Assembly: GCA_015522685.1 (NCBI GenBank)
Contig: WALU01000032.1
Coordinates: 32,001-96,000, forward strand
Direction of reading: 5' to 3'
Length of the DNA stretch: 64,000 nucleotides
From: Thermoproteota archaeon
Lineage (GTDB): Archaea > Korarchaeota > Korarchaeia > Korarchaeales > Korarchaeaceae
Under the pieces are notes generated by a model, which was not told the origin of the DNA, did not search any database, and saw only the letters and a program-made list of their open reading frames with translations. Shown here one piece after another: positions 474 to 56,491 of the stretch. Both the position numbers and the translations under genes were made by a program. Each line of letters opens with the position of its first letter. Position 1 is the first letter of the stretch.

Positions 474-518
474 AAATCTCACCGGGCAACCTTATAGCTC
501 TCACCAAAAACAATATCG

Positions 519-2741
519 TTGAGTGAAATGTCGGGGATTTATTATCATCTCGAAGATTTAGATGAAGCTATTGAGATATGGTTTAGCGGTGGGGCTAGTA
601 GAAAGATGAGATATAAACCGTACTTCTACACATTCCCTGATGAGGAAAATAAAGTTTCTGGATTTATAGATAAAGAAAGGGTTCGGGTAAAGGTACTTGG
701 TGTGGATAAAGAGCTAGTAAAGTTCAGCTTTTTGGATGATAAATCGAGAAAGAAGGCAGCTAAGAAAGTAAAGAGGCCCTTTAATCTGGAAATATCTCCA
801 TGGTTTCAGCTAATTATAGATAAAGGATTAGTACCTTTCAGTGAATTAGATGAGGATCTAAAGCCAGTAGGGCCGCTGAGAGGCCAGGAAGAGATAAAGA
901 AGCTCTTCTTCTCAGGGCTCATATACAGTGAGGACGGCTTCCCATTGGAAGGAAAAAGCCCAGTAGTAGCTATAGCTTATGCAATAGAGGATGGTCCGAT
1001 AGAGATAATATCAACTAAAGATGGGGATGATAAAAAGATCATCGAAGAGTTCGTCTCATTAATCAAAAAGGAAGATCCAGATGCCCTAGCTGGGTACGGT
1101 CACGATGTTGATGAACTCAAGCATTTAAAGGCGAGGTCTCAATATCATGGAATTAAATTGGCTATAGGAAGGGATGGATCTGAGCCTAATGAGACGGGAA
1201 GGTTCTTTAGAGGAACTATCTTAGTGGAGAATAGAATAAAAGGGAGAGCCAACTTAGATATGTTCCCCATTGCTTGGAGAGATTTTCCTCAATTACCAGA
1301 AAGAACGTGGTATGAGCTGGCCGATAAGATAGGGGTAAGGAGACCAAAAGCTCTCATGAAATTCAGAATTGCAGAGGTCTGGAAATCTGATGAAGACAGA
1401 GCACTGGCTTATCTAAAGGGGAAGCTTTCTACGATTAGAGAAATATATGGGAAGATTATGGGTCACCAAGTAGAGCTATCTAAACTTACTTTGAGGCCCA
1501 TTCATAGACTCATAAGAACTCCGGTTGGTGAAATTGTGGAATCATATATACTTAAGGAGGCTAAGAAGGTGGGGTGGGTTTTCTCTGCTAAGGAACCACA
1601 TAAGGAGAGCGGCTATGTCGGAGGGTATGTTTGGTTGAGATCTCCAGGACTATACGAGGAGATGGGCTATTGGGATTTTGCAAGCATGTATCCATCCATA
1701 ATGGCGTATCATAACATAAGCTTTGAGACGGTTAATCCTCCTCCTAGACTCTGTGATAGTGCTGAGAAGATAGAGGTGGAAGGGGTCTCAGCTGAGGTAT
1801 GTCAAAACATTAGGGGTCTAATTCCGGTGCTAGTCACGAAATTAATGAAGGAAAGATCTAAAATAAAAAATCAAATGAAGAATTTATCAGCGGACAGTCC
1901 AGAATACAAGAGGCTTGATTCAATTCAAAGAGCTGTTAAGGTAGTCACTAATGCGATGTATGGGTATATGGGCTGGGCTAATGCTCTTCTAATGAATCTA
2001 GATGCAGCGAGATTGACTTCGGCTTTAGGGAGATATTACATTAAGAGGGTAAAGAAATATGCAGAGGGAAAAGGCCTAACAACGATATACATAGATACAG
2101 ATGGCATCCAACTAATAGGAGGAAATCCAGAGGTTTATACATCGCTTCTCGAGGAGATAAATGAGAAATTACCAATAAGACTTGAGTTAGAATATATTGC
2201 GGAGAAGGGCCTCTATCTTGCGAAGAAGAAGTACGCTCATCTAGTTAATGGTAAATTAGTGGCTAAGGGGTTCGAGTTCGTTAGAAGAGACTATCCTAGC
2301 ATAATCAAAGAAGCCCAGAAAAAAGTAGTAGAGATGGCTCTAAATGGCAAAAGCTTAGAGGAGATAAAGAAGGAGATCAATAGTTTCAGAAATAAAATAG
2401 TAAATAAGCAGATAGAAAAAGAGGATCTTATAATAATGGAGACTATGGGGAAGGAGCTCGAGAGATTCGAGAGGAAAACAAAGGGATTCTATGCTGCTAC
2501 ATGGCTCTCGGATAAGAAAGGCATAGAGGTACATAGAGGTCAGGTACTCAGAATACTCATAATAAAGGGGCTAGGAAATGTTAATGAGAGAGCAAGACCT
2601 GCTGCTTTCTTCGATATAGATAATTTGGATTTAGGATATTACATTAGGCTATTCGATCAAGTTATGGAAAGGACTATATCATCGCTAAAGAAGGTAGGAA
2701 TATCAGAGAAGGAAGTAAAGGGGCTTGAAGAGTGGTTCTAA
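519..2741 (+). CDS. polB: Family B DNA polymerase, PolB3-like, degenerate 3'-5' exonuclease
   Basis: Polymerase motifs DFASMYPS, KVVTNAMYGY, YIDTDG, KKY, KGFEFVRRD; C-terminal PIP-like GLEEWF; Exo I-III acidic residues missing. Confidence 0.92.
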   Translation: MSEMSGIYYHLEDLDEAIEIWFSGGASRKMRYKPYFYTFPDEENKVSGFIDKERVRVKVLGVDKELVKFSFLDDKSRKKAAKKVKRPFNLEISPWFQLIIDKGLVPFSELDEDLKPVGPLRGQEEIKKLFFSGLIYSEDGFPLEGKSPVVAIAYAIEDGPIEIISTKDGDDKKIIEEFVSLIKKEDPDALAGYGHDVDELKHLKARSQYHGIKLAIGRDGSEPNETGRFFRGTILVENRIKGRANLDMFPIAWRDFPQLPERTWYELADKIGVRRPKALMKFRIAEVWKSDEDRALAYLKGKLSTIREIYGKIMGHQVELSKLTLRPIHRLIRTPVGEIVESYILKEAKKVGWVFSAKEPHKESGYVGGYVWLRSPGLYEEMGYWDFASMYPSIMAYHNISFETVNPPPRLCDSAEKIEVEGVSAEVCQNIRGLIPVLVTKLMKERSKIKNQMKNLSADSPEYKRLDSIQRAVKVVTNAMYGYMGWANALLMNLDAARLTSALGRYYIKRVKKYAEGKGLTTIYIDTDGIQLIGGNPEVYTSLLEEINEKLPIRLELEYIAEKGLYLAKKKYAHLVNGKLVAKGFEFVRRDYPSIIKEAQKKVVEMALNGKSLEEIKKEINSFRNKIVNKQIEKEDLIIMETMGKELERFERKTKGFYAATWLSDKKGIEVHRGQVLRILIIKGLGNVNERARPAAFFDIDNLDLGYYIRLFDQVMERTISSLKKVGISEKEVKGLEEWF

Positions 2742-2744
2742 CCC

Positions 2745-3086
2745 CTAAACCTTTAAGAATTTGAGAGGTAACTTAGAAGATTTCTTTTTTCTGTAAGGTC
2801 TATTTAGAGGGACGGCTACACGCCTTTCCTCCTCAGCTCTCGGTTTCACAATACCCAGATATACTGCGCAGCTTATACAGTAATATCTAGTCTCAAGCCT
2901 CTTTGATATGTACGCCCCCTGCCTCTCTAGGTCCTTACCTAAACTTCCGCCTACAGGAGAGACCCATCTAGTTACTTTCACTGCTTTATCGGCGGGTATC
3001 GCTCTTCCACACTGATAGCATTGAACTATCCTCTCATGACCAGAACCACCTAGCTTCCTACCTCTGTTCTTTCTTTTTTTTGGCAT
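2745..3086 (-). CDS. rps26e: 30S ribosomal protein S26e
   Basis: MPKKRKNRGR...CYQC...PADKA...YCISCA; start trimmed to MPKK. Confidence 0.95.
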   Translation of the reverse strand: MPKKRKNRGRKLGGSGHERIVQCYQCGRAIPADKAVKVTRWVSPVGGSLGKDLERQGAYISKRLETRYYCISCAVYLGIVKPRAEEERRVAVPLNRPYRKKKSSKLPLKFLKV

Positions 3087-3214
3087 ATATTTCCCCGGAT
3101 GGTCTAACATATGGGCGAAAATAAAGGTTTGCTTTGATAGTCTGGGGTCATCTAAACCTAAAGGCCGCTGAAAATCTCAAAATATACTACGATATAATAA
3201 TGAATTGAAGGAAA

Positions 3215-4654
3215 TTAATATGATCTACCTATCCAAGCTTTATGTTTTGCTTTTCTACCACAGATAATACACTTCTCTCCTGAATCAACGAGGGTATTCT
3301 CCTCATATCCAAGTATGCTGTAACCAACTTTCTCCTCAACTTCATGGCCGCATTCATCCAGCCCGCACCAAGCAAAGGATATCATCTTATCTCCGATATT
3401 CTTCTTTATCCCTTCTATACTAGTAACATGAACAGTCCTCTTGTTAAAGTAATCCTCAGCCTGAGATCTCATGCTGTCTTCTATATCCCTGAAAATGCTA
3501 CTGAGAGATTCTACGATGTCATCGGCTGAAATCTTTACTCTTTCCATGGAATCTCTCCTAGAAATTGTCAGCGTCCTCTCTTTATATTCCTTCTTTCCTA
3601 TTTCTATCCTAATAGGTACACCTTTCATTTCCCACTTATAGAACTTGTATCCAGGTCTGTCCTCACTATCATCTAGAAATACTCTAAACTCTTTAGATAA
3701 GGTATCCGATACCTCCCTACAGTACTCATTTATCTTCTCTTCATACCCCTTAGATACTATTGGTATGATGACTATTTGAATTGGAGCTAGCTTAGGTGGT
3801 AGCTTTAATCCCCTATTATCTCCATGTATTGATACTAGAGCTGCAAGAGACCTCTCAGAGATGCCAAAGGAAGTCGTATTAACATGCTTCTTCTCTCCAT
3901 TCTTATCCATGTATTCGAGACTATATGCCTTAGCAAATAGATCTCCAAAGTTTATCACACTACCTAGCTCTAATGCCTTGCCATCGGGCATTATAGTTAA
4001 GATATCATAATTATACTTAGCTCCTGGAAAAGTATCCCAAGGAGTTGTTTTAACTATGACATAAGGAACCAGCAACTCATCGTAGAACTTTTTATATATT
4101 CTAATACCCAGTTCAACCTGCTTGACTGCATCTTCATAGGTAGCATGGAATGTATGACCCTCTTTGAAGAATGCAATTTCCCTAACCCTAAGCATAGGTC
4201 TTGTTGCCTTTGTCTCATACCTGTATACAGGTACTATCTGATAGATCCTGAGCGGTAGATCCTTATAACTCGTTATCCATCTATTTAATACCTCATACAT
4301 TATAGCCTCGCTAGTAGGTCTCAAAGCCAACTTCTCTTCTATATTTTGCCTTCCTAGCTTAGTGATCCAGTATATAGAGTCCTCAAAACCTTTTATAAAC
4401 TTAAATTCTCTTCCTAACACCCTTTCCGGGACTACACCAGGGAAGTAGACTCTTTTATGTCCAGTATCCCTCATTAGTCGCTCCATTATATCCATTACAT
4501 TTTCTATTAGTTCATATCCGAAAGGTAGCCATATATACATACCCTTTATAGGATACTTCTCATCTAAGATCTCAGCTTTGAAGAGAACTTCATCGAACCA
4601 ACGGGAGAAGTTTTCTTCTTTAGGCGTAAGTTCGAAGGCTTCTCTTCCCGACAT
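3215..4654 (-). CDS. proS: Proline--tRNA ligase
   Basis: LRPTSE, YRYETKATRPMLRVRE, GISER, PGYKFYKWEMKGVP, C-terminal Zn site. Confidence 0.97.
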   Translation of the reverse strand: MSGREAFELTPKEENFSRWFDEVLFKAEILDEKYPIKGMYIWLPFGYELIENVMDIMERLMRDTGHKRVYFPGVVPERVLGREFKFIKGFEDSIYWITKLGRQNIEEKLALRPTSEAIMYEVLNRWITSYKDLPLRIYQIVPVYRYETKATRPMLRVREIAFFKEGHTFHATYEDAVKQVELGIRIYKKFYDELLVPYVIVKTTPWDTFPGAKYNYDILTIMPDGKALELGSVINFGDLFAKAYSLEYMDKNGEKKHVNTTSFGISERSLAALVSIHGDNRGLKLPPKLAPIQIVIIPIVSKGYEEKINEYCREVSDTLSKEFRVFLDDSEDRPGYKFYKWEMKGVPIRIEIGKKEYKERTLTISRRDSMERVKISADDIVESLSSIFRDIEDSMRSQAEDYFNKRTVHVTSIEGIKKNIGDKMISFAWCGLDECGHEVEEKVGYSILGYEENTLVDSGEKCIICGRKAKHKAWIGRSY

Positions 4655-4697
4655 AATACTCCCTCACTGGAAAGGTCCCAACTTTCCCTGATTAGTC

Positions 4698-5393
4698 CTA
4701 TCTAAAAACTATGCCTATTGACTTCAGAAGATCAATCCTTTCAAGAGATCTTAAAAAGTTAAATCTAGCTCCAGGAATGGCCTCTTCTAGCTTTAAAATC
4801 ATACTTAAATATCGGTTTTTTGATATATAATCTAGTATATCTTCTACATTATCAATCTTATTGGTTAGGAGAGCCCATGCTTCCTCAATGGGAATTCCAA
4901 CAAATGGTATAATAGTCCTATCAATCTCTCTCATAGCTAAGAATACTCTTCCCTTTGCAATAAAAATGCTAGGAGATCCTTGAAAGATGAACTTAAGGAA
5001 AAGGGCTACGACATCATCTAGAACAAGAGGGATTACCAGTTTTTTCCCTTTATGGGACTCTTCGACTGTTTCATAAAGAGAATTCCATAGACCTTCGGAC
5101 GTCTCTACATCTACATATGTGGATTCTACTGTAACAGGAAATTCAGATTCCATTTCCTGAAAAAGCTCCCATAGAACACTATCATAAGGAAGCCCCGTTC
5201 TAATATATAAGAGCCTATCTCTCCTTGTTAATAAGCCATATTTGCTGACAGATCTTCTCATTCTTGATAGAAGAGAATTTCTCAAACAATTACGACATAA
5301 AGCTTCTCCTGAATATTTTCTAACTAAAATTACCTCCTTAGAGCCGCATCTGCTGCACCTGAGTTCCTTTTTATTATCCTCTTCACTTATCAT
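4698..5393 (-). CDS. TtuA/Ncs6 (PP-loop tRNA thiolase)-like protein, catalytically degenerate
   Basis: N-terminal CSRC...YSGEALCRNC Zn finger typical of TtuA; SGGKDS replaced by TGLPYDS; GHNLDD replaced by PLVLDD; no internal CxxC. Confidence 0.6.
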   Translation of the reverse strand: MISEEDNKKELRCSRCGSKEVILVRKYSGEALCRNCLRNSLLSRMRRSVSKYGLLTRRDRLLYIRTGLPYDSVLWELFQEMESEFPVTVESTYVDVETSEGLWNSLYETVEESHKGKKLVIPLVLDDVVALFLKFIFQGSPSIFIAKGRVFLAMREIDRTIIPFVGIPIEEAWALLTNKIDNVEDILDYISKNRYLSMILKLEEAIPGARFNFLRSLERIDLLKSIGIVFR

Positions 5394-5410
5394 ACGATTG
5401 ATCTCTACCT

Positions 5411-6100
5411 TGCTTGATATAAAACCAGAGGTTAAGGTCTTCTATAGCCTAAAAGATGGAAAATACTGACTAAAAAGAGAGATAGAGCAAAATTTATCCT
5501 TAAGGTTCTAGAAGAAATTAGCATAACTGCCTATGTATGTATATGGTAGCGTGGCAAGAGGGGGAGGTTCATCAAAGGACGATATATATGATAGTTATGG
5601 AGTCTACGCTACCTCTTTCTCTTTTCGAGAAAACTCTATCTAAACACTTAGATAATCCTATTTTTCGAGGGATAATTTAAGCTACCTTACATAGCACCAA
5701 AAAATACTATACTAGCATACATTTCGATAAGGTGACAGTATCCTCTCCTGCTGGTAAATTAAGGGAGAAAAAAGGAAGAGTTCTATAAATTCAGCGATAA
5801 AGTAAGCCTAGATGAGCTTATAACTAATATTAGAGTTCTAAGAGTAAATAAGAAAGTAAGGTTAATGGTACCTAACAAAAAAGGTCACCTAGAATATCTA
5901 ATTAGGGAATATAAGGAGATCATAGCTAAGGTACTGGAGTGCTAAGAAGGAGCTGATAGAGGAAAGGGTGAAAGTACCGATCAAGAGGCGCACTATGGAA
6001 TGGCGGAGCTTTTCTAGGCTATTACCTTACGCTTAGAGAAATCTTTGAAGAAACCGCATTAAGGCATAGGAGGTTAAAAGTTTAGAAAGAGATTAAGTAA
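5411..6100 (+). pseudogene. Degraded archaeal Pol-beta-type nucleotidyltransferase (COG2413-like)
   Basis: Fragments in several frames: WKILTKKRDRA, YVYGSVARG, ELYKF, RVLRVNKKVRLMVP..KGH, IIAKVL; several stops and frameshifts. Boundaries approximate. Confidence 0.7.
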
Positions 6101-6109
6101 GAATTCTCT

Positions 6110-7195
6110 TTAATCAGATACTTGAAACCTAAGCCTAGCAGCAATACCTCCTAGTGAAGCTAGTTTTTCCCCAGGTTCGCTCTCCGTGTCTATTATATGA
6201 AACTTAGCTCTAATCCTCTCGCATTTCTCCAGAAGTCGGAGAGTTTCCTCCCTAGTTTTTGGATTAAAGAGGAGAGAACTAACTACCAAGACCTCCTCTA
6301 CAGCACCATATCCTACAGCCTTTCTCACCTCACCAAATCCATAAGTGACTAACCTAGAATTTTTAGCTAGCAACTCAAAAATTTTCTCTACGGATTCCAT
6401 GTCATGAGATAAAGTAAACTCTTTCGTCACTTTCTCCACATCTCCTCTTTTTATCATTTCCAATATACCAGAAAATGTTGAACTGCTTGCTCTTCCCAGT
6501 CGCATCTTCTCTGAGATCTTGGGCTTTTTTTCTCTAATATAAGAGAGAAACTTATCTTTAATGTATCCAGGTCCTCCAATTATTATAGCCTCAGGATTAA
6601 TCCTAGAGTTTAATTCATCGACTAAGTTAGATAGATCATTATAATATCTTCTTTCAGAATCCTCCCTCCTCCTCACGTCATCTCTCTTGGGTGGAAGATT
6701 GGATCTAACATAAGCAATTTCTTTCGCTCTGTAAGCGTCCAATTTCGCTACTGTAGCACCTTCATCATCCATCGCTACTAGGAGGATACTCCCTTTTTTT
6801 GAGTATTCCCTAGCTCTCTTCAGGATATCTAGATGAAGTTTGTTCCAATTTCTCTTCTCAATTTTTATTATTGAGCCCTCCATGACGTTGAGAGTATGAT
6901 GCTGGCCTTGAATTCCAAATCTATCTGGTCCTATTCTTACAATACCGGTCACTCTGAGCCTCTCAGAATACTGATCTATCTTTATCTTCTCTACCTCCAG
7001 TGTTAAGGTCATTGTAATTCTCTCTCCACTATCAGCCCTAATGCCTTCTTGCTTGATCCTTCGAGTAGTTCTCATTGTTACTAGGTCTCCAGGCTCCAAA
7101 ATAGATAGAAGCCAATATAGATCATCTAAATTACCTACCTTAAGCTTAATAAATCCCTTTTTCAGATTTTGCTCCAAAATCTTCAACAGGAGCAC
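6110..7195 (-). CDS. pelA: mRNA surveillance protein Pelota
   Basis: NLDDLYWL..ILEPGD, RLRVTG, GQHHTL, GPGYIK, YGAVEEVL, LGGIAARLRF. Confidence 0.96.
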   Translation of the reverse strand: MLLLKILEQNLKKGFIKLKVGNLDDLYWLLSILEPGDLVTMRTTRRIKQEGIRADSGERITMTLTLEVEKIKIDQYSERLRVTGIVRIGPDRFGIQGQHHTLNVMEGSIIKIEKRNWNKLHLDILKRAREYSKKGSILLVAMDDEGATVAKLDAYRAKEIAYVRSNLPPKRDDVRRREDSERRYYNDLSNLVDELNSRINPEAIIIGGPGYIKDKFLSYIREKKPKISEKMRLGRASSSTFSGILEMIKRGDVEKVTKEFTLSHDMESVEKIFELLAKNSRLVTYGFGEVRKAVGYGAVEEVLVVSSLLFNPKTREETLRLLEKCERIRAKFHIIDTESEPGEKLASLGGIAARLRFQVSD

Positions 7196-8407
7196 CTACT
7201 GAACAGTATAGATCGCTATTCCAGTGGGCCTTCTAACTATATTCTTAGCGAGACCTCCAACTATCGCCCTTACCCCGACCTCATAGGACTTATCCACAAT
7301 CCTTTGCGTTATTATCCTATCATAAACTATATATCTAACTTCCTTTAGGCTATTAAGCTCATCAAGTAAATCACCTACTAAGATTTCCTTAATTATGTGG
7401 AGATTGTCATCAATCAAAAGCACCTTATCCGTACCTTTAATCTTGGAGTAGTGCTCCCTAAACATCTCTGGTATTCTAGCGAGTCTCTCATCTCCCTCTG
7501 CTATCTTCTTTTGGGTGGTAATGACCGGTGCCTCTTCTTTAGGAGGAGAGATTCCTAATTCTCTTCTAACATCATCTACTGGAACGGCTGAGGATAGTGT
7601 TCTCCTTACCTCCTTAGCTGTCATTTCTTCTACAACCTTACCCTCAGGAGCTCTAGCTACGTAATCTATATCTGTTTGTTCGAGTAGTGTCCTCAAAACC
7701 ATTTCTCCGCCTCTATCCCCATCAACGAAAGCAATTGCTTCCTTCTCTGAGATGAGCTTAATTAAAGATTTAGGAACTTTTTCTACCGCTCCTCCCATGG
7801 CTATGACGTTATCGTACCCATACTTTAGGAGGTTCATTACATCCGCTCTTCCCTCGACGACTATTATCTCTTCAGCATCCTCTACTCCTCTTGCAGCAGG
7901 CAGTTCCTCACCTCCATAGAGTATAAAATTAGACTTGGCGCTTTCTCTTTGGACAAATTCTATTAACTTTCTAAAGTTATCCTCCCTCTCTACGGACCAT
8001 TTCCTTAAAATTTCAGCAGCTCTCTTTGCCACATCATTTCTCCTTTCTTCCCTATCATCTAATATCCTCATAAGTCTGAATTTAGCTGGATAAGGACCAA
8101 CCTTATCTACTGTCTCCATAGCTGCCGCTAATAATGCTGTTCTAACTTTATCAAGACCTGAATAAAGTTCTACAATTCCTCTTGATCTATCACCTTCTCT
8201 CCTCATCCTAATGTTTATTCTCCCGATTTTACCCGTTCTCTGGAGTTCCTTAAGCTCTAATTCTGGACCTAAGAGCCCTTCTAGCTGACCGAAGATGGCA
8301 CCTATTACATCGCTTGTTTCGACTATACCATTAACTAGAACCTCCAATTTGGCTATATATTTATGATGAAAACTATCCTTTCTCAAATTATCAGCCAAAT
8401 TAATCAT
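7196..8407 (-). CDS. dnaG: Archaeal DnaG (TOPRIM; exosome-associated)
   Basis: DVIGAIFGQLEGLLG, LQRTGKIGRI, VVEGRADV, FVDGDRGG. Confidence 0.96.
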   Translation of the reverse strand: MINLADNLRKDSFHHKYIAKLEVLVNGIVETSDVIGAIFGQLEGLLGPELELKELQRTGKIGRINIRMRREGDRSRGIVELYSGLDKVRTALLAAAMETVDKVGPYPAKFRLMRILDDREERRNDVAKRAAEILRKWSVEREDNFRKLIEFVQRESAKSNFILYGGEELPAARGVEDAEEIIVVEGRADVMNLLKYGYDNVIAMGGAVEKVPKSLIKLISEKEAIAFVDGDRGGEMVLRTLLEQTDIDYVARAPEGKVVEEMTAKEVRRTLSSAVPVDDVRRELGISPPKEEAPVITTQKKIAEGDERLARIPEMFREHYSKIKGTDKVLLIDDNLHIIKEILVGDLLDELNSLKEVRYIVYDRIITQRIVDKSYEVGVRAIVGGLAKNIVRRPTGIAIYTVQ

Positions 8408-17831: not shown

Positions 17832-20321
17832 ATGTCTAACAAGAAGGGTATCTTACTCTCAGTGTTTTACTTAGGCAGTGATAAAACTGCTATACTGAAA
17901 TTTTATGACCTTGAAAATGGCCAGGTTTTCCTAGTTAAAGATAGTACTGACCATAAGCCCTACCTTCTCACTAATGCTCCTCCAGACATTATAGAAAATA
18001 TCTTACCTCCCAATCTTATCTCTCGTATCTATAATATCTCCACAGTGAATAAGTATGATGTCCTTCGAGATCAGCAGATTGGGCTAACTAAGATTGAAGC
18101 CAAAGATCCCCTGGCGATCGGAGGATCTTCCCATAATATAAGAGACGAGCTTGTTAAGAAGGGATTTAACGTTTGGGAGGCTAAGATAAAATACTACGAC
18201 TGCTATGTCTACGATAGAGGTCTAATACCCGGATGCTCATATGAGGTAGATGAAGAAGGTAATTTAAGGAGGACTTTAATTGAGAGGAATCTACCCGGTG
18301 AGTTCAGGGATCTAAATCCTAAAATAAAGGAAATTTTGGGATCATTCATACCACTATTTGATGAACCTTCGCCACCGATGCGCAATGCTGCTCTTGATAT
18401 AGAAGTTCTATCTTCTCCAGATAGGATACCAGATCCCTCGAAGCCGGATAGGCCTGTTGCCGCTGTGGCATTGGTGGATAGTGATGGAAGAAAGGAGGTC
18501 CATGTACTGGCTAGAGGAGGGGATATACCAGATAAGTTGAGAAATGGAGCCAGAATTGTGAAGTATGAAAATGAAGGGAGGCTTATAAGATCAGTCCTAG
18601 ATATAATCTCAGATTATCCCATAATCTTCACCTACAATGGAGATAATTTCGATATGCCTTACTTGGCCAGAAGGGCTAGAGAGTTGGGTGTAAGTGATAG
18701 GCCTATAAGGCTAGAGAGGGATCGCGCTCTGCTGGATACTGGAATGCATATAGATCTATACAAACTTTTCAGTAACAGATCAATTCAAGTTTACGTTTTC
18801 GGCAACAAATATCTGGGTTATACATTAGATGAGGTCTCTGAAGCTCTACTAGGAGAAGGAAAGATTCAACTAGGGACTAGAGACTTTTACTCGGTTGGAG
18901 TGAAGGATTTAGCGGAGTATTGCTTACAAGATGCGGAACTCACTTTCAAACTAGGAAATATAGGATCAAGGGAATTGATACATCTGCTGTTCCTCCTATC
19001 TAGGATAAGCAAGATGTCCTTAGAAGAGGTGTCTAGACAAGGTGTCTCTTCATGGATAAGAAACATGATATTCTTCGAATACAGGAAAAGAAATTGGTTA
19101 ATACCAGAGAAAGATGAAATAAAGGCCATTAGAGGAGAGAGAACATATTCCCAAGCAATAATAAAGGGAAAGAAGTATATGGGAGCCATAGTGCTTGAAC
19201 CTGTACCAGGAGTACACTTTAACGTAGCTGTCATGGATTTCGCAAGCCTATATCCTTCCATAATAGGGAGATGGAAGGTGAGTTTTGAGACAATAAATTG
19301 CCCTCATACTGATTGTAAGGACAACAAACCAGTTAGGGAATTGCCCCACTGGATCTGTAAGAAAGGGCTTGGCATAATTCCTTATATGATCCAAGCTCTC
19401 AGAGATGTGAGAGTCAGGAGATATAAGAGGATAGCTAGAGAAGAAAAGAACGAGGAAATGAGAAGGTGGTACGATACAGTTCAGAGAAGCCTCAAGGTAT
19501 TCCTCAATGCTTCTTATGGGATATTTGGATATGAGAATTTTCCTTTATACTCTCCACCTGCAGCGGAAATGATCACAGCTCTAGCAAGGAAATCAATGGT
19601 CCTTTCGATAGAGGAGGCTAAAAAAATGGGGCTAAAAGTGATATATGGTGATACAGATAGCTTATTCATAAAACAAGCTACAAAAAGTAGCATTGAATCC
19701 TTGGAGGCTGTTATAGAATCTAAGCTTGGTATAGATCTAGAGCTGGATAAGTGGTATCGCTACGTTGTCCTATCTAAGCTAAAGAAGAACTACCTAGGAG
19801 TTACAAAAGAGGGAGTTATTGATGTAAAAGGTCTCCTAGGTAAAAAGAGGAACATACCCAGATTTGTGAAAGAAGCATTCAATGAGGTCTTAGAAATTTT
19901 GAGGGGTGTCGAGGCTCCTGAGGAATTTGAGGAGGCCAAGCATAAAGTAGCTGAAACCATAAAGTTATATGTTAAAAAATTAAAATCAGGTGAATTTGAT
20001 CTAGAGGAATTAGCTTTCAGAACAATGCTCTCTAAGAGATTAGATAGCTACAAAAAAACAACGCCGCAGCATGTTAAGGTAGCTAGAATGATGGAAAGCA
20101 TGGGTTACAAGATAGTACCTGGCCAGGTTATAAAATACGTTAAAGTTAGGGGTAGAGAGGGGGTCATGCCAATTGAGCTGGCCAATAAATCCCAGATAGA
20201 CAAAGGAAAATACTTAGAAATAATAAAAACAACATTTGAGCAAATACTTGATTCCTTAGATATGAATTTCGATAGCATAGTCAAAGAGAGGAAATCAACT
20301 AGCTTGGAGGAATTCTTCTAG
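17832..20321 (+). CDS. polB1: Family B DNA polymerase PolB1
   Basis: Exo motifs LDIEV, YNGDNFD, YCLQD intact; DFASLYPS, KVFLNASYG, YGDTDS; B1-type DSTDHKPY, DPLAIGG, TPQHVK; PIP-like SLEEFF. Confidence 0.95.
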   Translation: MSNKKGILLSVFYLGSDKTAILKFYDLENGQVFLVKDSTDHKPYLLTNAPPDIIENILPPNLISRIYNISTVNKYDVLRDQQIGLTKIEAKDPLAIGGSSHNIRDELVKKGFNVWEAKIKYYDCYVYDRGLIPGCSYEVDEEGNLRRTLIERNLPGEFRDLNPKIKEILGSFIPLFDEPSPPMRNAALDIEVLSSPDRIPDPSKPDRPVAAVALVDSDGRKEVHVLARGGDIPDKLRNGARIVKYENEGRLIRSVLDIISDYPIIFTYNGDNFDMPYLARRARELGVSDRPIRLERDRALLDTGMHIDLYKLFSNRSIQVYVFGNKYLGYTLDEVSEALLGEGKIQLGTRDFYSVGVKDLAEYCLQDAELTFKLGNIGSRELIHLLFLLSRISKMSLEEVSRQGVSSWIRNMIFFEYRKRNWLIPEKDEIKAIRGERTYSQAIIKGKKYMGAIVLEPVPGVHFNVAVMDFASLYPSIIGRWKVSFETINCPHTDCKDNKPVRELPHWICKKGLGIIPYMIQALRDVRVRRYKRIAREEKNEEMRRWYDTVQRSLKVFLNASYGIFGYENFPLYSPPAAEMITALARKSMVLSIEEAKKMGLKVIYGDTDSLFIKQATKSSIESLEAVIESKLGIDLELDKWYRYVVLSKLKKNYLGVTKEGVIDVKGLLGKKRNIPRFVKEAFNEVLEILRGVEAPEEFEEAKHKVAETIKLYVKKLKSGEFDLEELAFRTMLSKRLDSYKKTTPQHVKVARMMESMGYKIVPGQVIKYVKVRGREGVMPIELANKSQIDKGKYLEIIKTTFEQILDSLDMNFDSIVKERKSTSLEEFF

Positions 20322-26660: not shown

Positions 26661-27305
26661 CTATTTAAGAACTTTTCCGGTTTCCATATACCAAAGGTAA
26701 AGATCAAGCTCTGCAAGGCTCAGTCCTGTTCTCTGGGCTATCTCCTCTAGTATTCTTTCTATTTCTAGGTACTTCTTTCTAGTAATGCTTTTAGGTCTCT
26801 CTATCAATTCATACCTAGATAACAGATCCACTATATGAAAATCCACTATAGCTAAGTTTTTGAATCCTATGTTTCTAAGAAAGTGACTCGCTTCCTTATA
26901 TCCCAATCCTTTAACATTCTTTACGAACCACTCCCTCAGAGCCTTCTCGTCTTTAAAGCTTTCCAATATGCTCTTGAGTTTAGGGATGAGCTCTCTGGCC
27001 TTAACTATATATCTAGCCCTAGTCTTGGGAAAACGATATCCTAAATCCCTAAGCTTAATCTCAAGCTCCTCCTTAGATAGGTTTATTAGACCATCATTCA
27101 GTGACTTTTGGATTTTTATCCCTCCCTCAGCGCTATAATTTGCAGTTAGTATGCAGAAAGCTAGTTCCTTAAATATCTTCTCATTGTTACTCTTGTCAAT
27201 TTCTTCAAATTCCATTATTCTCTCTTTTATAGTTTTTGTTACACTACTCTTTCCTAGACTTTCTATCTCCATCACTATCCTATCCATTCTGTCTGATCTT
27301 CTCAT
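26661..27305 (-). CDS. ogg: 8-oxoguanine DNA glycosylase/AP lyase
   Basis: ELAFCILTAN, KGLGYKEASHFLRN, IVDFH, LDLYLWY..TGKVLK. Confidence 0.93.
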   Translation of the reverse strand: MRRSDRMDRIVMEIESLGKSSVTKTIKERIMEFEEIDKSNNEKIFKELAFCILTANYSAEGGIKIQKSLNDGLINLSKEELEIKLRDLGYRFPKTRARYIVKARELIPKLKSILESFKDEKALREWFVKNVKGLGYKEASHFLRNIGFKNLAIVDFHIVDLLSRYELIERPKSITRKKYLEIERILEEIAQRTGLSLAELDLYLWYMETGKVLK

Positions 27306-53879: not shown

Positions 53880-55076
53880 CTACTCTATCTTCTTTTTCCT
53901 CTCTCTTTCATAGAAAACATAGAGCTTCTGCACATTCTGTAAAGCAACTAAATCAGCTCTTCTGCCTCTGAAGCTCAGTTTATCTAATCCCTCTAGCTCC
54001 GAAGCTACCCTCAAAGCATCGAACATTATAACCTCTGGCCTTAATGTTTTAGAATGTTCTATGCATGCAGTATCTGCTAGATTTATGTAATCAGGGTAAG
54101 ACGGACCTCTCGTATGCTTCGCAGAGTACTCTGCGAAATTCTTCAAATATAAATTAAATCCAGTCAGTTTTATTACTGGTCCATTAATCGCATGAGGTCT
54201 GTAGAAACCGACCTCTACATCGTTGAATAAAGGATTTTGAAGAAATAATGAAGCCATTCTGTCTACATAATGCCTCTTCCTCCTTACCATAGATGAGAAA
54301 TAGGAAATGGTGAACTTAGAGTCTTCATATTCATCACCATATCTTCCTACGTTTATGAACTCTCCTGGATCCATCAATAGCCATCCAATGATTGAATCTG
54401 ACAAGAGGTCTGAGAGTATAGGTCTAGGAATGTCTTTTGGAGCATTATCTATGATCTCCATCAGCTCACTTCCTAGGAATTTGTACGCAATAAGGGAGGT
54501 GCTAATCCTCTTCACTAAACCAACTAAACCCTTCTTCTTAGCTTTTGCATGCTTCATTATCCTATGAGAAAGCCCTGTTATACTTGATCCCTTCCTTAAC
54601 TGAAATATTGCATCGGCAGGAGGAAAATCCCCATCTCTAACTAAGATGTCAAAATCTTCTCTCCTTGAAATAATATCTTCCATAAGCTTTAGCTCTTCTC
54701 TTTTGGCCATGACTGAAGAAAGAGAGGAGTATAACTCTTCTTCTTCATTAAAATCTTCTCTAATTGATTTAAGTCTGAATATCGGTCTTCTTGCCTTAGG
54801 ATATGTTACAGCCGCTAGAAGGATGAATTCAGCTCTTAGTCCTCTTAGAGATAGAGTAGGAGAGAAAGTGGAGTCTATGGCTACTATCTCATATTCCTTG
54901 GGAGGATCACCAAGCCTCAAAACATTCTCCCTCAAAAATCTCCCTAATTTATCATATATTGGAATGAGATATTTCCATGCTCTCCTCATATGAATCGTAA
55001 TTTTCCTTGCTCTATCGAGAGCAGCAGAATATATATCAGGATCTAGGAGATCCCCTTTCCATTCAACATCGCTCAT
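53880..55076 (-). CDS. NurA-family nuclease (divergent)
   Basis: IVAIDST, REE, LVRDGD, GLVKR, SD, YPDYINLAD; ATGA overlap with herA. Confidence 0.78.
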   Translation of the reverse strand: MSDVEWKGDLLDPDIYSAALDRARKITIHMRRAWKYLIPIYDKLGRFLRENVLRLGDPPKEYEIVAIDSTFSPTLSLRGLRAEFILLAAVTYPKARRPIFRLKSIREDFNEEEELYSSLSSVMAKREELKLMEDIISRREDFDILVRDGDFPPADAIFQLRKGSSITGLSHRIMKHAKAKKKGLVGLVKRISTSLIAYKFLGSELMEIIDNAPKDIPRPILSDLLSDSIIGWLLMDPGEFINVGRYGDEYEDSKFTISYFSSMVRRKRHYVDRMASLFLQNPLFNDVEVGFYRPHAINGPVIKLTGFNLYLKNFAEYSAKHTRGPSYPDYINLADTACIEHSKTLRPEVIMFDALRVASELEGLDKLSFRGRRADLVALQNVQKLYVFYERERKKKIE

Positions 55077-56491
55077 GAACCTTCACCGAATGTATGCATC
55101 AGTATGGGTCTCCTAAAGGGAGAAAGGAGACCAGTTACATAGAAATCTCCAGTTCCCAGTATGCCAGTATCTATGTCCCCTAAGCTAACTATTTTTCCTA
55201 TATCATCCAAATCGCTCGAAGATTGAAGAGAGCTGAAAACAACGCTGTTTATGTTCGCCCTTATATTAATATCTAAGTCAGATACCCATCTCTGGCTGAC
55301 AAGAATTAAGCCGATACCCCACTTCCTCCCTCTCCTAGCTACGTCTGATAAAGCTCCTGTAGGGGGCTGTCCCTTAGCGTATACCTGAGCTTCATCTACA
55401 ACTATTGCGATGTTTAGCTTATCTTCTCTTCTCTCAGCCCTATCCATAATTCCCGACATAACGCCTCTCATTATACCATATCTTATGGGTAAGGTCTCAG
55501 AGCTTATGTCAAGTATTGTTAGGTCTTCATCTAAAATATGATCTATTAGATCATTGATATCATATTTTCTGCCATTAAACGAACTCAGGGATATTCCAGA
55601 TTTCGCAAGTCTGAATAAGGACTTGGCTATTGTATGATCTTTTCTCTTGAGATATCCCATAACTACCCTCAAAGTGGCTATAAATGGTTCATCATCCCAA
55701 TTAATATTCATGGGACTTATCTCCCTCAACTTTGATATGGCTTCCATGTCAAATTCTCCGCTTCCAAAACCTAGAGATTCCATGAAGTTCCTAACCTTCT
55801 CTAGATCTCCTTCACTATACAAGTAGGTATAAAGGGATACCTCGGCATCATCCAAGTAATCTTTTCCAAGGACCTTATTGGCCATAACCTCAGCTAGAGA
55901 AAACAAATCCGGGAATATATTGTCATCAGTTATTACCTGATCTCTAAAATATGGAGAATAGTCAACTCCTGTATGATCAAAGACAACAACCCTCTTGCCA
56001 GTCCTTACAAGCTCCTTCACCAAAAGCCTGACGAGATGAGATTTGCCTGAACCAGTTGCTCCAACTACAGCCACATGATAATCTATCGCTCTGGAATCTA
56101 GGGGAAGAGGCCACTTAGACGATGGATGTTCTCCTACAAAGATGGGATTCTCTATAAACGCTAGCTCCTCAAGATCCCCCCTCTCTACTTTATAGGCAGG
56201 TGTCCCGGTTGGTATAGCTGAGAGTATTCGAGGATCGAACCTGCCTCGATTGATCGATCCATATAGCTCCACATTGGCATTTTGATATTCATAAGCCTTT
56301 ATAGCTTCCACATTAGTAGGCGTAAAAGGTGAGTAAGGCGACATGGTTGGATTAGCATAGGAAACTCCTCTTACAACACCTAGAAGCCCATTTCCCACAA
56401 TTATTAAATCGTCTATAAGGACCTTATCCTCTAGTCTAACCGTGATCCACTTGGTAGAGGTCCTCCCTACAGCAAACCCGACTTTTCTCAT
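55073..56491 (-). CDS. HerA/FtsK-family ATPase (DUF87)
   Basis: N-terminal HAS-like barrel, HVAVVGATGSGKS, FDHTG, VDEAQ, RRGRKWG, SQR. Confidence 0.9.
   Translation of the reverse strand: MRKVGFAVGRTSTKWITVRLEDKVLIDDLIIVGNGLLGVVRGVSYANPTMSPYSPFTPTNVEAIKAYEYQNANVELYGSINRGRFDPRILSAIPTGTPAYKVERGDLEELAFIENPIFVGEHPSSKWPLPLDSRAIDYHVAVVGATGSGKSHLVRLLVKELVRTGKRVVVFDHTGVDYSPYFRDQVITDDNIFPDLFSLAEVMANKVLGKDYLDDAEVSLYTYLYSEGDLEKVRNFMESLGFGSGEFDMEAISKLREISPMNINWDDEPFIATLRVVMGYLKRKDHTIAKSLFRLAKSGISLSSFNGRKYDINDLIDHILDEDLTILDISSETLPIRYGIMRGVMSGIMDRAERREDKLNIAIVVDEAQVYAKGQPPTGALSDVARRGRKWGIGLILVSQRWVSDLDINIRANINSVVFSSLQSSSDLDDIGKIVSLGDIDTGILGTGDFYVTGLLSPFRRPILMHTFGEGS

Follow-up and report, generated by a model that had tools for sequence, protein, structure and literature searches.

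A PolB3-like DNA polymerase of Korarchaeia with an intact polymerase site and a conserved exonuclease domain that lacks its canonical catalytic residues

Introduction

In reviews, PolB3 figures as the standard B-family DNA polymerase (PolB) of archaea, equipped with proofreading, and loss of proofreading is reserved for PolB2 and the eukaryotic Pol alpha and Pol zeta. The DNA analysed here is a stretch of 64,000 nucleotides, called the window below, from a Thermoproteota archaeon of the Korarchaeaceae (assembly GCA_015522685.1, contig WALU01000032.1, positions 32,001 to 96,000 of the forward strand), whose genome assembly comprises 1.48 Mb and is 92% complete. The original prediction held that a gene near the left end of the window encodes a PolB3-like polymerase with an intact polymerase site and a dead proofreading domain. 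Here we report that this gene belongs to a lineage, clade A, in which the catalytic residues of the exonuclease (Exo) domain are lost, but the domain itself is under strong purifying selection and is not decaying.

The closest described systems are the archaeal PolB3s (Pyrobaculum calidifontis, 5mdn; Tgo, KOD, 9N, Pfu and Pab; Archaeoglobus fulgidus), with which clade A shares the fold, polymerase motifs A, B and C and a tail resembling a PCNA-interacting protein (PIP) motif. A crenarchaeal B3 gene also adjoins pelota and a convergent dnaG, as reported in PMC4104785, and, among the matches listed, Table S4 of Kazlauskas 2020 (PMC7544198) classes the second korarchaeal PolBs with B3. However, clade A differs from these enzymes in lacking the Exo metal ligands, in the altered walls of its uracil pocket, in a longer Exo-domain hairpin and in an AWRDFP motif; it is only about 30% identical to them and sits on a long, well-supported stem.

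PolB2 (Sulfolobus Dpo2) and Pol zeta are B-family enzymes that lack proofreading and continue synthesis beyond lesions and mismatches, and they provide the functional model for the reading proposed below. In most PolB2s motif C is altered, the Exo domain is decayed and the gene belongs to an iRadA/PPB2 operon, whereas clade A has a canonical YIDTDG, a conserved Exo domain and no such operon. The B2s of related genomes read HAL, HFL or HVL at motif C, against YIDTDG and a full Exo fold in the polB3-like gene product, and a true B2 co-occurs with clade A in 11 of 29 genomes. Dpo3 of the Sulfolobales, too, is a B3 that accompanies PolB1 as a dispensable accessory and has a repair phenotype, but it has reported exonuclease activity, occurs in genomes without PolD and lies on a different branch. 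Pol alpha likewise combines an active polymerase with an inactivated but structurally retained Exo domain; however, clade A lacks its C-terminal zinc domain or B-subunit docking, falls on an unrelated branch and carries a PIP-like tail. A second group, clade B, also consists of B3s with an intact polymerase site, a dead Exo domain and PolD in the genome, but it forms a separate branch in which the hairpin is short, the replacements vary and the Exo domain is not unusually conserved. No description of an Exo-dead korarchaeal or TACK PolB3 was found in the full-text literature, although subscription papers and supplementary alignments could mention the loss. Clade A is thus apparently an unpublished, lineage-wide PolB3 variant.

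Polymerase and exonuclease sites

All the motifs quoted in the original prediction, i.e., DFASMYP, KVVTNAMYG, YIDTDG, FFSGLIY, GYGHDVDE, AYLKGK and the tail GLEEWF, are present in the translated sequence (Table 1). The polymerase site is intact, with motifs A, B and C complete, including both motif C aspartates that mark family B, and the polymerase (Pol) domain matches PF00136 with an E value of 4e-48. An AlphaFold2 (AF2) model of the protein, built from an 82-sequence alignment, has a mean predicted local distance difference test (pLDDT) value of 91.3 and shows the complete polymerase fold with N-terminal, Exo, palm, fingers and thumb domains. This model superposes on the 9N polymerase (4k8x) with a Foldseek TM score of 0.84 and a VIA Z of 36.2 (root-mean-square deviation 3.0 Å over 692 residues). 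Of the two candidate starts, ATG 528 is likelier than the upstream TTG, because the database copy of the protein (P0003) has 737 residues and begins at ATG 528. A sequencing error or pseudogene is ruled out by the open frames and by ratios of nonsynonymous to synonymous substitution rates (dN/dS) far below 1.

The register of the Exo motifs, given in Thermococcales numbering, was established from a multiple sequence alignment (MSA) against intact B3 enzymes, numbered on P0191 (Thermococcales-type by its motifs), from alignment to B3 enzymes of solved structure and from six independent pairwise alignments. In all six of the latter S132 falls opposite the Asp of D141, and G194, D198, E199, Y298 and K302 fall opposite N210, F214, D215, Y311 and D315, respectively, whereas L134 is paired with the Glu of E143 in five. 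The positions D141/E143/N210/D215/D315 therefore read S/L/G/E/K, and the canonical B3 pattern (D-x-E, N-x4-D, Y-x3-D) is absent. The predicted loss of Exo residues thus stands, with the refinement that the Exo II aspartate is replaced conservatively by glutamate and that the Exo III tyrosine is retained. The loss is common to all readable clade-A genes of the 29 clade-A genomes, with the Exo I aspartate found in none of 27 and the Exo III aspartate in none of 29, so that chance or sequencing error is ruled out. Position 315 varies in the clade (K, R, Y, T or G in the MSA); Lys302, which occupies it, was considered as a new catalytic lyase residue and rejected, since the position is not constant. 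In Thermococcales PolB, D141A/E143A is reported in PMC13136892 to disable the exonuclease, and D215A likewise in PMC2794169; canonical proofreading by the clade-A polymerase is therefore very unlikely, judging from its sequence.

The description of the proofreading domain as dead holds only for its catalytic residues. The Exo domain has a dN/dS of 0.02-0.15 in 11 of 12 clade-A pairs, similar to that of the Pol domain (the remaining pair was saturated). At a Pol identity of 0.5-0.6, the Exo identity is 0.50 in clade A, whereas the 172 intact B3s reach 0.39 and clade B reaches 0.37; at 0.6-0.7, the corresponding values are 0.67, 0.53 and 0.46, although the sequence pairs behind these values are not independent. 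The near-invariant residues specific to the clade group in the AWRDFPxLP signature and in a lengthened beta-hairpin (T226, F230, R231, G232, I234 and E237), whose strands comprise residues 224-230 and 233-240 of the AF2 model. The hairpin-spanning segment measures 33 residues in 27 of the 28 measurable clade-A proteins and mostly 25-29 residues in 94 measurable intact B3s. In addition, acidic residues are newly conserved at positions 198 (34/35), 199 (33/35), 237 (34/35), 255 (35/35) and 266 (35/35), and all of these except 199 are positions without a conserved acid in intact B3s.

Uracil pocket and PCNA-binding tail

The uracil-sensing pocket of Pfu polymerase comprises Y7, P36/Y37, residues 90-97 and 111-116, R119 and D123, and its uracil binding is abolished by V93Q, both as reported in PMC2241895. 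By the MSA (Pfu/Tgo numbering), the window protein retains Y7, P36, Y37, I114 and D123, and carries the changes P90>D, V93>R, R97>A, E111>N, F116>P and R119>Q. A similar division is seen over the 32 clade-A proteins that have an N-terminal domain: Y7 (Y/F), P36, Y37 and D123 (D/E) are retained, while P90, P94, R97, F116 and R119 are altered and E111 is still Glu in only 16. Position 93 is Arg in 22 of these proteins, Met in seven and Leu in three; among the 172 intact B3s, 161 have V, I or L there. These changes are suggestive of an altered uracil pocket in clade A, and go no further than that. In Pfu, the pocket and the Exo domain jointly stop copying past deaminated bases, according to PMC2794169, and a combined change of both would therefore be coherent in clade A.

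The C-terminal GLEEWF is non-canonical, lacking Gln, and was described in the original prediction as PIP-like. It is very probably a PIP motif, given its likeness to the end of the FEN1 of the same genome (GGGLEAWF). A complex prediction for residues 705-740 with PCNA scored 0.50 against 0.01 for the best control, which is weak, since only 5 of 78 solved complexes score 0.60 or less, all four passing mismatches also do so and like complexes are already solved; the runs agreed in at least 87% of contacts, with a partner pLDDT of at least 51. Korarchaeal PIP motifs as a group seem to lack the canonical Gln, as in FEN1, in KGLEEWF of the PolB3-like protein and in KKLIDFM at the end of the PolD subunit DP2 (G000:C31:24745-25776, L183).

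Polymerase complement and the loss of proofreading

The genome of the window contains two PolB genes. The second is a PolB1 with intact Exo I, II and III (P0002), which scores 1155 bits against a cut-off of 780 for the NCBIfam PolB1-type equivalog and lies at the distance originally predicted. The polB3-like protein scores 151.5 bits in the same comparison and has NAMYG in motif B rather than the NASYG of B1, placing it outside PolB1; the Exo residues are retained in all 21 PolB1 sequences of the class that were read. The genome also encodes PolD, whose DP2 gene adjoins PCNA and an open reading frame (ORF) resembling the primase large subunit (labelled by eye) and whose DP1 has phosphoesterase motifs that are intact by eye, together with FEN1 and two UDG-family genes. 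DP2 occurs in 29 of 29 class genomes searched, a set that excludes G041-G051. The original prediction of an enzyme specialised alongside PolB1 is therefore correct in that an intact PolB1 is present, but the partner set is PolD plus PolB1, not PolB1 alone. Among other polymerases, PolY was found in none of the 36 genomes of the family (one short match in G025 lies outside it), and PolB2 was found neither in the genome of the window nor in the single-contig genome G012. NucS/EndoMS was not found in the 92% complete genome of the window.

The association with PolD was examined in 121 Thermoproteota genomes, 70 of which have a B3-level match; one partial gene (G110) was dropped, leaving 69. In all 30 genomes with DP2 the B3 has at most one of the four Exo carboxylates (G124 read through Exo II only), a count that corresponds to two or three independent losses, not to 30 events. 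Of the 39 genomes without a DP2 match, 35 have an intact B3, three retain two carboxylates and one has a dead Exo site (G071, completeness unknown). We take the three two-carboxylate B3s to be Sulfolobales Dpo3-like; these genes (L167, L168 and L170), in genomes with no PolD and with two of four Exo carboxylates, also have altered Pol motifs, e.g., YADLTS as motif C in L170. Eight genomes that are more distant, and that have PolD but gave no PolB1 match (G031, G032, G033, G035 and G037-G040), carry an intact B3, and an Asgard B3 (L035) is likewise Exo-intact. The pattern fits the rule that B3 loses its Exo residues where PolD and PolB1 coexist. The premise that archaeal PolB3s normally proofread consequently fails in the PolD-bearing Thermoproteota sampled. 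PolY is present beside an Exo-dead B3, mostly of clade B, in 12 of 31 Thermoproteota genomes, and Exo loss is therefore not simply a replacement of PolY; as a general rule that explanation was rejected.

Phylogeny and distribution

The nearest characterised relatives of the window protein are B3s, with E values of about 1e-75 for Pyrobaculum and Thermococcales PolB and 1e-24 for Sso PolB1 (PDB), and homologues with 55-57% identity are named Ca. Korarchaeum sp. Trees were computed with IQ-TREE from hand-chosen subsets of about 260 sequences, with short constrained searches and no named B1-B10 references. Clade A has a long stem with a support of 100 in every tree, including one from Pol and thumb columns only, and lies within or sister to B3 when unconstrained. 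Clade B is nested among crenarchaeal-type B3s, with a support of 96-99 for its core group. The approximately unbiased (AU) test rejected joining A with B2 (p 0.033), as well as joining A with B (p 0.005 under LG+G4 with 48 rows; p 0.003 under PMSF LG+C10 with 30 rows). For A with B1 the two models differed, LG+G4 rejecting the grouping (p 0.002) and PMSF C10 not doing so (p 0.19), while A with B plus crenarchaeal B3 withstood the test (p 0.07 and 0.16). The LG test was run with 2000 replicates and returned a program warning. The position of clade A among the B3s is thus ambiguous, and we therefore use the label PolB3-like. The predicted assignment to PolB3 rather than PolB2 agrees with the B3 best matches, the canonical motif C and the rejection of A with B2. 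The possibility that the gene is a PolB2 of the type that keeps its DxD, as described in PMC11791011, was rejected, given the missing operon and the same AU result.

Clade A occurs in 29 of 40 genomes of the class (genera g1, g2, g4, g6 and g7), and clade B in eight of 40 (g3 and g5), among them G045, in which Exo I is unreadable owing to a frame break. Two incomplete class genomes (63% and 66%) gave no B3 match. The partial B3 of G050 (L045), from another lineage, retains the Exo III aspartate; it groups with the distant P0219 and not with korarchaeal genes, and is possibly contamination. At least two Exo losses among B3s are favoured by the trees. A single loss for all korarchaeal B3s is rejected by the AU values for A with B, although the searches were short and artefacts are possible. 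In addition, the g5 clade-B gene occupies the slot that clade A has in g1, g2 and g4, convergent with S26e-ProRS-pelota-dnaG (L040, L041, L043 and L044). This common slot implies that one gene replaced the other in place, that there is hidden paralogy or that the trees contain an artefact such as long-branch attraction, and it weighs against independent losses.

A profile search of 1.84 billion representatives returned five near-full-length clade-A members with at least 686 bits (the next match scored 459) plus two fragments. One further Thermoproteota genome (G155) carries clade A, and members from Aciduliprofundum/Thermoplasmata have only 581-590 residues, beginning at the Exo domain and lacking the N-terminal domain. 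No separate gene for that domain is evident among the ORFs of three Aciduliprofundum/Thermoplasmata loci. This distribution suggests a transfer between hydrothermal archaea. Clade-B clusters are named for Bathyarchaeia, Nitrososphaeria, Culexarchaeum and one bacterium, HR11, and a partly degenerate neighbour is from Freyarchaeota. The HR11 cluster (P0166), an Exo-dead archaeal-type PolB, could reflect a transfer to bacteria or misbinning. No viral relatives were found in viral_contigs with the two patterns searched.

Proposed function and alternatives

We propose that the clade-A polymerase is loaded on PCNA and assists PolD and PolB1 by filling repair gaps and tolerating damage, a prediction to which we give nearly even prospects. 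With D141, E143 and D315 gone, the enzyme would be unable to excise the 3′ end and would avoid idling where a primer end is mismatched or damaged. Copying through uracil and hypoxanthine would be allowed by the changes in the uracil pocket or, in the Aciduliprofundum members, by the absence of the N-terminal domain, and the C-terminal GLxxWF tail would load the enzyme on PCNA. The conserved Exo fold with its long hairpin and AWRDFP motif may be retained as a DNA-holding module instead of a nuclease, and the enzyme could do without proofreading since PolD (DP1) and PolB1 provide this function. This proposal draws on the clade-wide loss of Exo residues together with the altered pocket, on the absence of PolY from the family and the restriction of PolB2 to 11 of 29 clade-A genomes, on the presence of DP2, PCNA and an intact-looking DP1, on the matching FEN1 tail, on the low dN/dS of the Exo domain and on three clade-A members without the N-terminal domain. 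Moreover, deletion of PolB3 in Sulfolobus is reported in PMC8100216 to be viable and sensitive to 4-nitroquinoline 1-oxide (4-NQO). The low fidelity that was originally predicted does not follow from Exo loss, as Dpo2, which lacks Exo, inserts with high fidelity according to PMC8764526.

Several observations weigh against this proposal. The V93 register fits the strand-helix junction of the AF2 model, yet only one of six pairwise alignments reproduces it, and the lid Tyr and the base Pro-Tyr of the pocket are retained. The acids D198, E199, E237, D255 and E266 could form another site. The gene lies in a housekeeping slot, without the iRadA/PPB2-type operon of the damage-induced PolB2. The small number of losses behind the PolD association and the presence of PolY beside many Exo-dead B3s tell in the same direction, as does the exonuclease activity of Sulfolobales Dpo3 reported in PMC8764526 and PMC7785828.

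A role in lagging-strand maturation, in which the enzyme would displace RNA primers on PCNA together with FEN1 and ligase, with Exo loss boosting displacement and the long hairpin, rich in aromatic and basic residues, acting as a wedge, is in our view unlikely but a serious contender, and it does not exclude the proposed repair role. Exo-minus B polymerases displace strands more. Almost all genomes of the class that are complete enough contain the gene, in a housekeeping slot, and its product has a PIP-like tail of the FEN1 style; the G025 copy precedes a DNA ligase gene on the same strand by 42 nt. Thermococcus PolB, a B3, acts on the lagging strand and displaces strands better than PolD, as reported in PMC13136892. 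However, synthesis without proofreading at each Okazaki fragment would be mutagenic in a genome where NucS/EndoMS was not found, PolB1 could serve in this role, and the ligase adjacency is a single case among the clade-A neighbourhoods compared (a comparison that left out P0030, P0123 and P0125). In addition, this role alone leaves the altered uracil pocket unexplained.

Alternatively, the enzyme could be a generalist backup that lost proofreading through redundancy with PolD and PolB1 and keeps the Exo domain for folding, without a new role. The fact that Exo loss follows PolD in 30 of 30 genomes agrees with this account, and so does clade B, whose dead domain is no more conserved than that of active enzymes and whose replacements vary. 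However, relaxation alone does not predict an Exo domain that is more conserved in clade A than in proofreading B3s and that has invariants of its own, which makes this account improbable for clade A.

A further candidate explanation is an Exo site rebuilt from the newly conserved acids. In such a case D198, E199, D255 and E266 would form a shifted metal site with another nuclease or a nucleotide-binding activity; their near-invariance, together with E237, and the lack of conserved acids at all but one of these positions in intact B3s speak for it. The canonical metal-A ligands are, however, all lost, position 315 is variable and pairing with the conserved R231 and R254 would account for the acids just as well, so that we regard such an activity as very unlikely. 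Least probable of all is a Pol-alpha-like initiator that would briefly extend primase RNA primers before handing off to PolD or PolB1, since the shared architecture of active Pol and inactivated Exo (described in PMC7544198) is met by no primase linkage in the compared neighbourhoods, no Pol alpha C-terminal partner domain, a PIP tail that points to clamp-loaded work and PolD reported as better than PolB at RNA-primer extension (PMC7776575).

Genomic setting and coordinates

The neighbours of the polB3-like gene are ThiI, S26e, ProRS, a TtuA-like gene, a pelota-like gene and DnaG, with no iRadA/PPB2-type operon. A 36-nt gap that holds TTATA is common to the polB3-like gene and the divergent ThiI/THUMP gene. 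Within the convergent block, a 231-aa TtuA/CTU1-like protein (4698-5393, minus strand) matches the N-terminal LIM model only; this conserved member of the block is possibly a tRNA thiolase that has degenerated. The adjacent segment 5394-6109 has no long ORF in this genome, while relatives have an ORF of 230-270 codons in that slot without a match here, and it is possibly a broken or diverged gene. Elsewhere in the window there are an 8-oxoguanine glycosylase gene (26661-27305) and, at 53880-56491 on the minus strand, a HerA-like ATPase gene (55073-56491) followed by a gene for a 398-aa protein without a Pfam match, possibly a NurA-like partner. The G025 gene next to the ATP-dependent DNA ligase is at L053:6579-10655.

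Table 1. Coordinates of the polB3-like gene, its motifs and related features (positions of the window unless a locus is given)
Feature	Position	Strand	Remark
TATA-like TTATA	492..496	+	about 32 nt before ATG 528; putative function
polB3-like gene, clade A	519..2741	+	740 aa from TTG; probable start ATG 528, 737 aa
Uracil-pocket walls, residues 74-101, altered	738..821	+	from MSA; register less certain
Exo I remnant FFSGLIY	906..926	+	D141>S132, E143>L134
Exo II remnant GYGHDVDE	1092..1115	+	N210>G194, F214>D198, D215>E199
Lengthened Exo-domain beta-hairpin, residues 223-242	1185..1244	+	conserved F-R-G tip; exceeds that of most intact B3s by 4-8 residues
Clade signature AWRDFP-x-LP	1272..1298	+	W253, R254, D255 and F256 invariant in 35/35
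Exo III remnant AYLKGK	1407..1424	+	Y311 kept as Y298; D315>K302
Polymerase motif A DFASMYP	1674..1694	+	steric-gate Tyr
Polymerase motif B KVVTNAMYG	1938..1964	+	
Polymerase motif C YIDTDG	2088..2105	+	both aspartates kept
C-terminal PIP-like tail GLEEWF	2721..2738	+	same style as FEN1 tail of this genome
Convergent housekeeping block (S26e, ProRS, TtuA-like, pelota/eRF1-like, DnaG)	2745..8407	-	marks chromosomal slot
PolB1, Exo I/II/III intact	17832..20321	+	15.1 kb past polB3-like stop codon
Clade-A genes without N-terminal domain	L097:3800-5572, L098:3-1730, L099:2917-4662		P0031, P0032, P0124, P0379

Significance

Clade A may be a distinct, undescribed B-family lineage that has given up both archaeal fidelity checkpoints, uracil read-ahead as well as proofreading, and converted its Exo domain to a new, conserved DNA-handling module, being one of at least two convergent Pol alpha- or Pol zeta-like origins where PolD and PolB1 proofread; we consider this whole possible and somewhat doubtful. 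In clade A a catalytically dead Exo domain is more constrained than a live one, which points to a function beyond proofreading. TACK-type archaea with PolD and PolB1 carry a B3 without Exo residues, and these residues have apparently been lost at least twice, offering a natural parallel to the loss of proofreading in Pol alpha and Pol zeta. The clade-A enzyme, probably thermostable, would also be nature's equivalent of the exo-minus, V93-mutant archaeal polymerases that have been engineered for biotechnology. For Korarchaeia and Bathyarchaeia, these results provide a testable model of a division of labour among three polymerases.

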